Shown here: in pieces, positions 38,386-39,424 of the stretch
Numbering within the stretch: position 1 is the first letter of the stretch
How the letters are laid out: each line of letters begins with the position of its first letter
Source of the DNA: Dictyostelium discoideum
Taxonomy: Eukaryota
NCBI GenBank assembly: GCA_000004695.1
Contig: CM000151.3
Span: 2,848,001-2,912,000 of the forward strand
Reading direction: 5' to 3'
Length of the DNA: 64,000 nucleotides
Made by a program: the position numbers and the translations under genes
Notes under the pieces: generated by a model
Seen by the model: only the letters and a program-made list of their open reading frames with translations
Databases searched by the model: none
Told to the model about the DNA's origin: nothing

Positions 38386-38678
38386 CTAATTTTCTAATTG
38401 TACATCACAATTATCTCTACATTTTTGCATTAGTACAACGCATTTTGACCATTCAGTTTTACAAAATTCTCTATTATCATCAACACAATCACTATAACAA
38501 TCACCATTTATTCCATTTGATGATATTATCATTAAATAAACCACTAAAAAAATACAAAAAAAGAGAGTTAATTTCTAAAAGATTAAAATTTGTTTTTTAA
38601 AAAAAAAATATTTTATTGTTAATAAAAAATATGTATAAATAAATAAAAAAATTGTTAAAAAAAATTTTATTTTACCAT
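38386..38678 (-). CDS. Small secreted six-Cys peptide (63 aa); proposed ATG-only first exon (38676..38678), exon 2 38386..38574
   Basis: Exon 2 encodes KLTLFFCIFLVVYLMIISSNGINGDCYSDCVDDNREFCKTEWSKCVVLMQKCRDNCDVQLEN, preceded by an acceptor cttttag at 38575-38576. There is no in-frame Met before the hydrophobic leader. About 100 bp upstream is ATG|GTAAAA, a start codon immediately followed by a donor. That gives MKLTLFF.., a clean signal peptide. The Cys spacing (C-x3-C-x7-C-x6-C-x6-C-x3-C) matches the intronless paralog at 39233..39424. Confidence 0.45.
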
Positions 38679-39020
38679 TATTCTATTTTTATTTTGTTTC
38701 AATAATTAGATTTTATAAATTAAAAAAAAAAAAAAAAAAAAAAAAGTTAAAACCCTTGTCAAATTTAAAAATCTTTTTTTAAATTTTTGTTTTTATTTTA
38801 AAATAAAAAAAAAAAAAAAAAAATATTAAAAAACAAAAAAAAAAAAAAAAATAATAGTAATTAATGGGTGGTATTAATAAAGTTTTTTTCATATAATTTC
38901 ATTAATATTTATACCAAAAACACCCACAAAAAAGGAGATCTTATTAATTATTACCATTTTTTGAAATTATATACATAATTACCCCCAACAAAAAAAAAAA
39001 AAAAATAATTATTTCTTTTT

Positions 39021-39056
<36 letters not shown>

Positions 39057-39232
39057 CTTTTTTATTTATTTTTAAATTTGATTAAAAAAAAAAAAAAACA
39101 TATTATTACATAAAAAATTTAATTATTATTTTTTTAAATTTATATTTATTTTTAATTCATTGATATGTTTTAAAATTTTCATTTATTATTATAATTATTA
39201 TAATTGATATTATTATTATTTTTAAAATTTAT

Positions 39233-39424
39233 TTATTTTTGTTCAATACCAAATTCAATATTACAACTTTCTTGGCATTTACCAACAACTACATCACAAA
39301 GAAATTGATCCTTTCCACAGTATCTAGTATTCTTTTTGAAGCAATTTGCATAACATTCATTCACATTACCAAGGGAAAAACTTATTGTTATTATAATAAT
39401 AATAATTACAATCAAGATATTCAT
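39233..39424 (-). CDS. Small secreted six-Cys peptide (63 aa), intronless paralog
   Basis: MNILIVIIIIIITISFSLGNVNE then CYANCFKKNTRYCGKDQFLCDVVVGKCQESCNIEFGIEQK. It has a signal peptide plus C-x3-C-x7-C-x6-C-x5-C-x3-C. Confidence 0.55.
   Translation of the reverse strand: MNILIVIIIIIITISFSLGNVNECYANCFKKNTRYCGKDQFLCDVVVGKCQESCNIEFGIEQK

Follow-up and report, generated by a model that had tools for sequence, protein, structure and literature searches.

Two adjacent genes on the minus strand of the Dictyostelium discoideum AX4 genome, here called copy 1 and copy 2, are predicted to encode small secreted peptides with six cysteines, and the coding part of the first exon of copy 2 would be its ATG alone. 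The genes lie around positions 38,386 to 39,424 of a 64,000-nucleotide stretch (the window), which covers positions 2,848,001 to 2,912,000 of contig CM000151.3 in assembly GCA_000004695.1. The data are best explained by two tandem paralogous genes, ancestrally three, each of which would give rise to a pre-peptide of approximately 63-66 residues, with a cleavable signal peptide followed by a mature domain of 41-44 residues. The ancestral layout would comprise a 5′ untranslated region (UTR) with the ATG, a phase-0, AT-rich intron of approximately 100 nucleotides (nt), and a single exon carrying all remaining coding sequence. The genes would have separate promoters, co-activated at the slug-to-culmination transition (16-20 h), and their products would be released extracellularly in the developing fruiting body. 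We place the probability of this account as a whole at about 0.6. Its gene structure, in which the splice junction is predicted, is highly likely to be correct.

Gene Structure of Copy 2

The coding sequence of copy 2 appears to be split between a start codon at 38676-38678 (ATG/GTAAAATA; here and below, slashes mark splice or cleavage boundaries and coordinates refer to the minus strand unless noted) and exon 2 at 38386-38574. Exon 2 encodes KLTLFFCIFLVVYLMIISSNG, continues as INGDCYSDC...VQLEN, and ends at a stop codon. The predicted phase-0 intron (38575-38675; GTAAAATA...TCTTTTAG) is 101 nt long and 93% A+T in AX4, and read-through would meet a stop at codon 4. The open reading frame (ORF) of exon 2 is closed upstream by an in-frame TAG (38575-38577), which doubles as the acceptor (ttttag/AAA), and no in-frame ATG was found before the hydrophobic stretch in AX4. 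Joining 38676 to 38574 yields a product of 63 residues (MKLTLFFCIFLVVYLMIISSNGINGDCYSDC...VQLEN). The initial annotation of the window, made from the AX4 letters alone, had placed both ORFs and this junction correctly and had recognized that copy 2 lacks a Met before its leader. Its description of a 3-nt first exon holds for the coding part, which is conserved in four genomes, but the exon itself is longer and also carries 5′ UTR.

The comparison of AX4 with the orthologous loci of two D. cf. discoideum genomes (L001 and L002) and of D. firmibasis (L003, CM069770.1:2856957-2869238) provides the principal evidence for this structure. AATGGTAAAATA is invariant in the four genomes, and the acceptor AG lies at the same codon boundary in each, while the intervening intron varies in length (101, 117, 105, and 111 nt). 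Gap columns make up 30% of the aligned intron and are essentially absent from the 42-nt leader and the remaining coding sequence. In D. firmibasis, the copy 2 leader (KSKLFYFFFLLFISIIISS) has diverged in sequence but keeps its length (19 residues to SS) and hydrophobicity. D. firmibasis has Ile in place of the internal Met of AX4 copy 2 and lacks any further in-frame ATG before the Cys domain, which leaves the exon 1 ATG as the sole possible start in that species. In L003, this start would lie at 6889-6891 and be joined to 7002. In AX4, cfZ, and D. firmibasis, the acceptor TAG terminates the upstream frame, which in cfY, a D. cf. discoideum genome, is open but without a Met. An ATG-only coding first exon is therefore supported as the only copy 2 model that would fit all four genomes. 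There is precedent for such short exons in small Dictyostelium developmental genes, as 89 of 96 sigN-like genes have a coding first exon of 13 nt (PMC2257962).

The public model of copy 2 in AX4 and the three different ones that cover its orthologs all appear to be wrong, as the initial annotation had anticipated for AX4. The AX4 model, DDB_G0273395/DDB_G0273587 (Q557F8), is a 48-residue product that begins with the internal Met of MIISSNG, spans only the last 48 codons of the gene, and lacks a leader. In each of the two D. cf. discoideum assemblies, the annotation has one fused protein, of 110 or 114 residues (L001 5001-6020; L002 5001-6097), in which copy 1 is spliced after ..NIEF into copy 2 at VVY.. 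across a pseudo-intron of roughly 700 nt. In D. firmibasis, only an out-of-frame ORF of 16 residues is annotated at this place (L003 7096-7146). Gene predictors unable to place a 3-nt coding exon would be expected to leave copy 2 truncated or fused in this way.

Gene Structure of Copy 1

Copy 1 is annotated as an intact ATG-to-stop ORF of 63 residues (39233-39424). Its product is identical to the AX4 chromosome 2 proteins DDB_G0273255 and DDB_G0273585 (Q557F9); the two identifiers per gene presumably reflect the AX3/AX4 chromosome 2 duplication. The initial annotation had treated the ATG-only exon as peculiar to copy 2. This does not hold, since copy 1 very probably has the same ATG/GT intron layout. 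Its candidate upstream start codon (39534-39536; ATG/GTATGG) is separated by a candidate intron (39431-39533; 103 nt in AX4) from the main coding exon (39233-39430), whose start at 39430 (tag followed by AACAAAATG) is probable. Translation from the upstream ATG would yield a product of 66 residues, with MNK added before MNILIV....

AAAAATGGTATG, which contains this ATG (39536-39534), is invariant in AX4, the two D. cf. discoideum genomes, and D. firmibasis. The acceptor TAG/AAyAAAATG is in frame and likewise invariant in all four, with candidate introns of 109, 100, and 81 nt outside AX4. The annotated D. firmibasis ortholog of copy 1 (P0005, KAK5575387) uses exactly the ATG-only coding exon, giving MNK-MNKMIV.... 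That annotation was produced with MAKER using genome-guided Trinity transcripts and the D. discoideum proteome (PMC11193728). Because the AX4 protein lacks this N-terminal extension, the D. firmibasis model presumably derives from transcript evidence. A second ATG just inside exon 2 would have hidden the mini-exon of copy 1. If both copies share the ATG/GT intron, a phase-0 intron immediately following the ATG would predate their duplication, and DDB_G0273255/DDB_G0273585 probably starts three codons earlier than annotated.

Predicted Peptides and Fold

Both copies carry the pattern C-x3-C-x7-C-x6-C-x6-C-x3-C behind a hydrophobic leader. The identical spacing had been noted in the initial annotation, although its x5/6 for the fourth interval was a small miscount, as the interval is x6 in both. 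The two products share 29% identity (BLASTP, E = 4e-9), in agreement with the proposed paralogy. Across nine sequences from the four genomes, the six Cys, the Tyr after the first Cys, and the S..G before the likely cleavage site are invariant, and all nine show the Cys spacing given above. A relaxed form of the Cys pattern, run against the six-frame translation of the 64-kb window, identified only copies 1 and 2.

The leaders resemble signal peptides, as had been proposed. Their maximum 10-residue hydropathy is 3.3-4.4, and small residues occupy positions -3 and -1 (SLG/N in copy 1, SNG/I in copy 2). The features of a secretory pre-peptide, an n-region, a hydrophobic core, and small residues at -3/-1, are thus all present by a simple hydropathy and (-3,-1) scan, and cleavage, predicted in the same way, would likely follow SLG and SNG. 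The annotated 48-residue product of copy 2 reaches a hydropathy maximum of 0.6 and has no hydrophobic leader.

AlphaFold2 models of copy 1 contain a continuous helix through the leader and a second helix, with a predicted local distance difference test score (pLDDT) of 79.8. For the mature 44-mer, helices span residues 2-16 and 21-38 and are joined by CGKD (pLDDT 86.6; four of five models agree). The cysteines at positions 5, 9, and 17 mirror those at 24, 31, and 35 about the loop, a symmetry for which the natural pairing would be C1-C6, C2-C5, and C3-C4. Such a three-rung disulfide ladder would staple the mature domain into an antiparallel helical hairpin, which is the probable fold according to the models. 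Counted from the sequences, the net charge of the mature domain is approximately 0 for copy 1 and approximately -4 for copy 2. A Foldseek comparison of the predicted structure with the PDB, a PDB sequence search with the peptides, and a Pfam search (E <= 10, including the defensin and SapB families) all returned no match.

Relation to Known Peptide Families

The closest structural matches of the predicted fold are the α-hairpinins. These plant helix-loop-helix peptides include antimicrobial peptides and trypsin inhibitors and are defined by the motifs C-x3-C-x4-20-C-x3-C (4C) or C-x3-C-x3-C-x4-20-C-x3-C-x3-C (6C) (PMC11591084). Plant members that invite comparison are EcAMP1, luffin P1, the vicilin-derived hairpinins, and the six-Cys nigellin-1.1 (PDB 2NB2). 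The amoeba peptides share the predicted antiparallel helix-loop-helix and the outer C-x3-C pairs but match neither motif. The inner Cys pair lies 7 and 6 residues away rather than the 3 of the 6C motif, and, unlike in the 4C motif, 21 residues, two of them Cys, separate C2 from C5. Furthermore, the amoeba peptides are amoebozoan rather than plant proteins, have no sequence homology to α-hairpinins, are neutral or acidic, and each have their own signal peptide instead of being cut from a vicilin or other multi-module precursor. The resemblance is most likely convergence, with the amoeba family standing outside the α-hairpinins.

Other small cysteine-containing families offer further comparisons. 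The initial annotation had suggested a defensin- or toxin-like scaffold. Defensins of the CS-αβ type resemble the amoeba peptides in being small, secreted, and six-cysteine, but they need a β-sheet and a C-x-C motif, whereas the amoeba peptides are predicted to be all-helical and no member contains C-x-C, so the comparison shifts to the α-hairpinins. Saposin-like proteins and amoebapores form bundles of four to five helices over approximately 80 residues with six Cys, unlike the two predicted helices of the 41-44-residue amoeba domain. Among animal peptides, cystine-stabilized α/α hairpins of the κ-hefutoxin type consist of two short helices stapled by C-x3-C ... C-x3-C.

Within Dictyostelium, the sigN/hssA-2C-7E genes offer a parallel in gene organization. 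They are likewise small, lineage-restricted, tandem, and developmentally induced, and after a first exon with very little coding sequence they have a single short intron; G-box-like elements have been proposed for sigN-type promoters (PMC2257962). However, the coding first exon of sigN-type genes is 13 nt rather than the 3 nt of the hairpin peptide genes, and their products are Ser/Gly/Cys-rich prestalk proteins of 87-89 residues, induced at 10-12 h. The Cys pattern differs and there is no sequence similarity, which places the hairpin peptides outside this family. No sigN-type protein was among the homology-search matches, and Pfam gave no family hit.

Selection and Developmental Expression

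The mature domains are under purifying selection. Between AX4 and D. firmibasis, the ratio of the proportions of nonsynonymous and synonymous differences (pN/pS) in the mature domain is 0.13 for copy 1 and 0.31 for copy 2, with pS of 0.29-0.47. The leaders are more relaxed than the mature domains in the same comparison.

Additional file 7 of Rosengarten et al. (2015) (PMC4403905) has a filter_UP sheet, two columns of which list DDB_G0273255 and DDB_G0273395 side by side. The columns are read as Hr18_rapid and Hr20_gradual, the only register consistent with the non-empty columns. This listing, as up-regulated at 18-20 h of development, indicates that both genes are expressed, as the initial annotation had supposed, and that they are co-induced at the onset of culmination. 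The interval of 16-18 h is one of two large rapid transitions, in which prestalk structural genes and DIF-1 synthesis rise, and the sporulation marker spiA follows at 18-20 h (PMC4403905). A search of published paper texts for the four gene identifiers found no mention.

Conserved Non-Coding Sequence

TATA-like elements followed by T runs are conserved upstream of both genes, which supports two transcription units. For copy 2, the alignment reveals GATTT(A/T)TAAATTTGACAAGGGTTTTAAC and a T run (38746-38773), recognizable also in D. firmibasis, as a candidate core promoter. The copy 1 counterpart, ACTATAAAAACAAAG followed by a T run (39619-39633), is invariant in the four genomes and may have the same role.

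Between the genes lies a conserved non-coding block of 140 nt (38856-38995), also found in D. firmibasis. In a three-genome alignment, this block has 0 gap columns and 5% variable columns, compared with 7-8% variable columns in coding sequence and 15-43% in other non-coding DNA (gaps 25-38%). It contains GTGGGTG and, inverted, CCACCCA (GGGTG/CACCC) 55 bp apart; the pentamer has a background of 0.34 per kb. Sites of the G-box-binding factor (GBF) take a GGGTG/CACCC-like form. The block is a candidate cis-regulatory module of copy 2 and may be a target of GBF. On the plus strand, it also includes ACCCACAA, which we take to resemble the DUSE element of Dictyostelium small-RNA promoters. An RNA gene was rejected in favor of regulatory DNA, given fold z-scores of -0.65 and -0.92 for the block and no Rfam match in it or elsewhere in the window. 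The block was also rejected as an alternative first exon (ATG at 38957 ... G/GTATAA, joined to 38545), whose donor is GTTTAA in both D. cf. discoideum genomes.

Alternative Explanations

Several points weigh against the account of two spliced genes for secreted, co-induced peptides. ATGGTA occurs in window DNA at 0.62 per kb per strand and is thus common enough that the AX4 sequence by itself is weak evidence of splicing; conservation across genomes carries the argument. Exact look-ups of the corrected products in a collection of ~15 billion proteins returned no match, meaning that no assembled transcript ORF backs them. Neither gene is listed in the supplements of a spore/stalk/cup RNA-seq study and a life-cycle proteome, and the expression columns cited above were assigned by counting tabs in extracted text against the header. 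The AlphaFold2 input alignments consisted of two sequences only, and one of the five mature models failed (pLDDT 42.8).

Three other gene models have to be considered. Copy 2 could be translated as annotated, from the internal ATG at 38532, into a leaderless cytosolic peptide of 48 residues, with the upstream ATG/GT a coincidence. This is the current reference model (DDB_G0273395/DDB_G0273587), and the chance frequency of ATGGTA speaks for it, but D. firmibasis has Ile for this Met and no in-frame ATG before its Cys domain. The 30 nt upstream are open, free of indels, and hydrophobic back to the acceptor in all four genomes, and the resulting product would lack a hydrophobic leader yet carry six invariant Cys like its secreted paralog; a start at this Met is very improbable. 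The fused models of D. cf. discoideum (P0002 and P0003) would instead make both ORFs exons of one gene for a two-domain protein of 110-114 residues, which would suit the presence of both halves in the same up-regulated lists. Fusion relies on a donor EF/GTATTG at ~39251 and an acceptor tttttag/TGGTT at 38545, and neither site exists in D. firmibasis, which has GGAGTA and TTTTTAC there. The copy 1 tail GIEQK and its stop are kept in all genomes (GVEQK, one conservative change, in D. firmibasis). AX4 and the two D. cf. discoideum genomes differ in this tail by synonymous substitutions, and in the annotations of AX4 and D. firmibasis copy 1 terminates with its own stop. Between the ORFs, ~700 nt include a TATA-like element, a T run, and the strongly conserved block, as expected of a promoter; a single gene is very improbable. 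That copy 2 is a decaying duplicate that has lost its start codon would agree with the lack of a contiguous ATG and with the decay of a third family member in AX4 (see below). However, a pN/pS of 0.31, six retained Cys, and the lack of frameshifts and stops in four genomes argue otherwise, as does the listing of copy 2 as developmentally up-regulated. The D. firmibasis MAKER model inside exon 2 also suggests a transcript, as that annotation drew on Trinity transcripts, and the odds of a pseudogene are very small.

If the two-gene, ATG-only models are right, what the peptides do is a separate question, and any specific function would be tentative at best. They are most likely to be stable protein-binding miniproteins, such as an inhibitor, a ligand, or a matrix or coat component. 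Under the same gene models, the peptides could also be antimicrobial or antifungal effectors that guard the spore mass, like the α-hairpinins of plant seeds. The closest structural matches belong to a family with antimicrobials and trypsin inhibitors (PMC11591084), induction at culmination would fit the protection of a dormant propagule, and the family has undergone birth-and-death evolution. Nevertheless, net charges of ~0 (copy 1) and ~-4 (copy 2) are unlike those of typical cationic peptides and make a membrane-lytic role unlikely. Selection on the mature domains is purifying rather than diversifying, and the peptides neither share sequence homology with α-hairpinins nor match their motif definitions. 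An antimicrobial function is accordingly doubtful.

Family History and Neighborhood

To date, the family appears confined to the D. discoideum species group. Exhaustive profile searching of 1.84 billion representatives, together with word-indexed searches, recovered only members from AX4, D. cf. discoideum, and D. firmibasis, and the Pfam and PDB searches described above add no recognizable homolog, in line with the initial annotation. At the loci linked to sybindin in D. purpureum and Tieghemostelium lacteum, synteny is broken and no six-Cys ORF was found. Two database proteins, P0006 and P0008, were rejected as low-complexity false positives. P0007 (250 residues, from a 902-nt JGI metagenome contig) contains three CYSDC-x14-C-x3-C repeats of a 4C hairpinin-like kind. 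It matches the family profile with E = 4e-6 at an hhalign probability of only 50%, and could be distantly related or share the motif by coincidence.

D. firmibasis also carries a third paralog, and the initial annotation had recommended a search for further members. This unannotated gene (L003 4703-4999; MKKTIIIFMILSLISDLVNSKGYSCYGNC...) lies 1.1 kb upstream of copy 1 and encodes 98 residues from a contiguous ATG, with six Cys spaced as in copies 1 and 2 and an extension rich in Asn/Ser at the C terminus. Its product was looked up in the 15-billion-protein collection and is absent. Upstream of it, at L003 4608-4676, AGG/GTAATC ... TTTTTAG/AAA is in frame with the ORF, but the donor is not preceded by an ATG; the interval may be an intron in the 5′ UTR, homologous to the one that follows the ATG in copies 1 and 2. 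In AX4, a relic of the third paralog occupies the syntenic place (40850-40985; ..FNCYGNCMTVDDNSF and a stop). A leader-like stretch and the first C-x3-C are kept, after which the stop intervenes and similarity is lost. The flank of the relic (40567-40677) is syntenic with D. firmibasis (72% identity, E = 2.5e-13). An assembly gap of 100 N (40075-40174) lies ~650 bp upstream of copy 1, so its distance to the relic and the upstream regulatory DNA in AX4 are uncertain.

On the plus strand, two tandem paralogous ORFs of 413 and 386 residues (35211-36452 and 36698-37858) are convergent with the peptide genes. Both begin MFKSF.GL.L, and the orthologous neighbors in L001 and L003 match the Pfam SET domain (PF00856). 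Window DNA has a G+C content of 13-30%.

Implications

For curation, DDB_G0273395/DDB_G0273587 should read as a secreted pre-peptide of 63 residues with a 3-nt coding first exon. The D. firmibasis annotation misses two family members, and in both D. cf. discoideum annotations the two genes appear as one. The correction is sound and of modest general interest; it opens no long-standing question and would be no great surprise to a Dictyostelium specialist. It also illustrates that ATG-only coding exons can make small secreted peptides invisible, even to a collection of 15 billion proteins.

A more speculative reading, with the odds well against it, is that social amoebae independently evolved these peptides as triple-disulfide helical hairpins, structurally analogous to the α-hairpinins of plant seeds. 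Released at culmination, the peptides would protect the spore mass or control its dormancy. For instance, they might then inhibit proteases of microbial or endogenous origin or form a paired neutral and acidic ligand. If true, this would define a convergent "propagule-protection" peptide class across kingdoms. The hairpin peptides would in any case form a tiny orphan family with a predicted cystine-stapled fold, co-induced at culmination, and they are tractable candidates for an extracellular activity in the Dictyostelium fruiting body.

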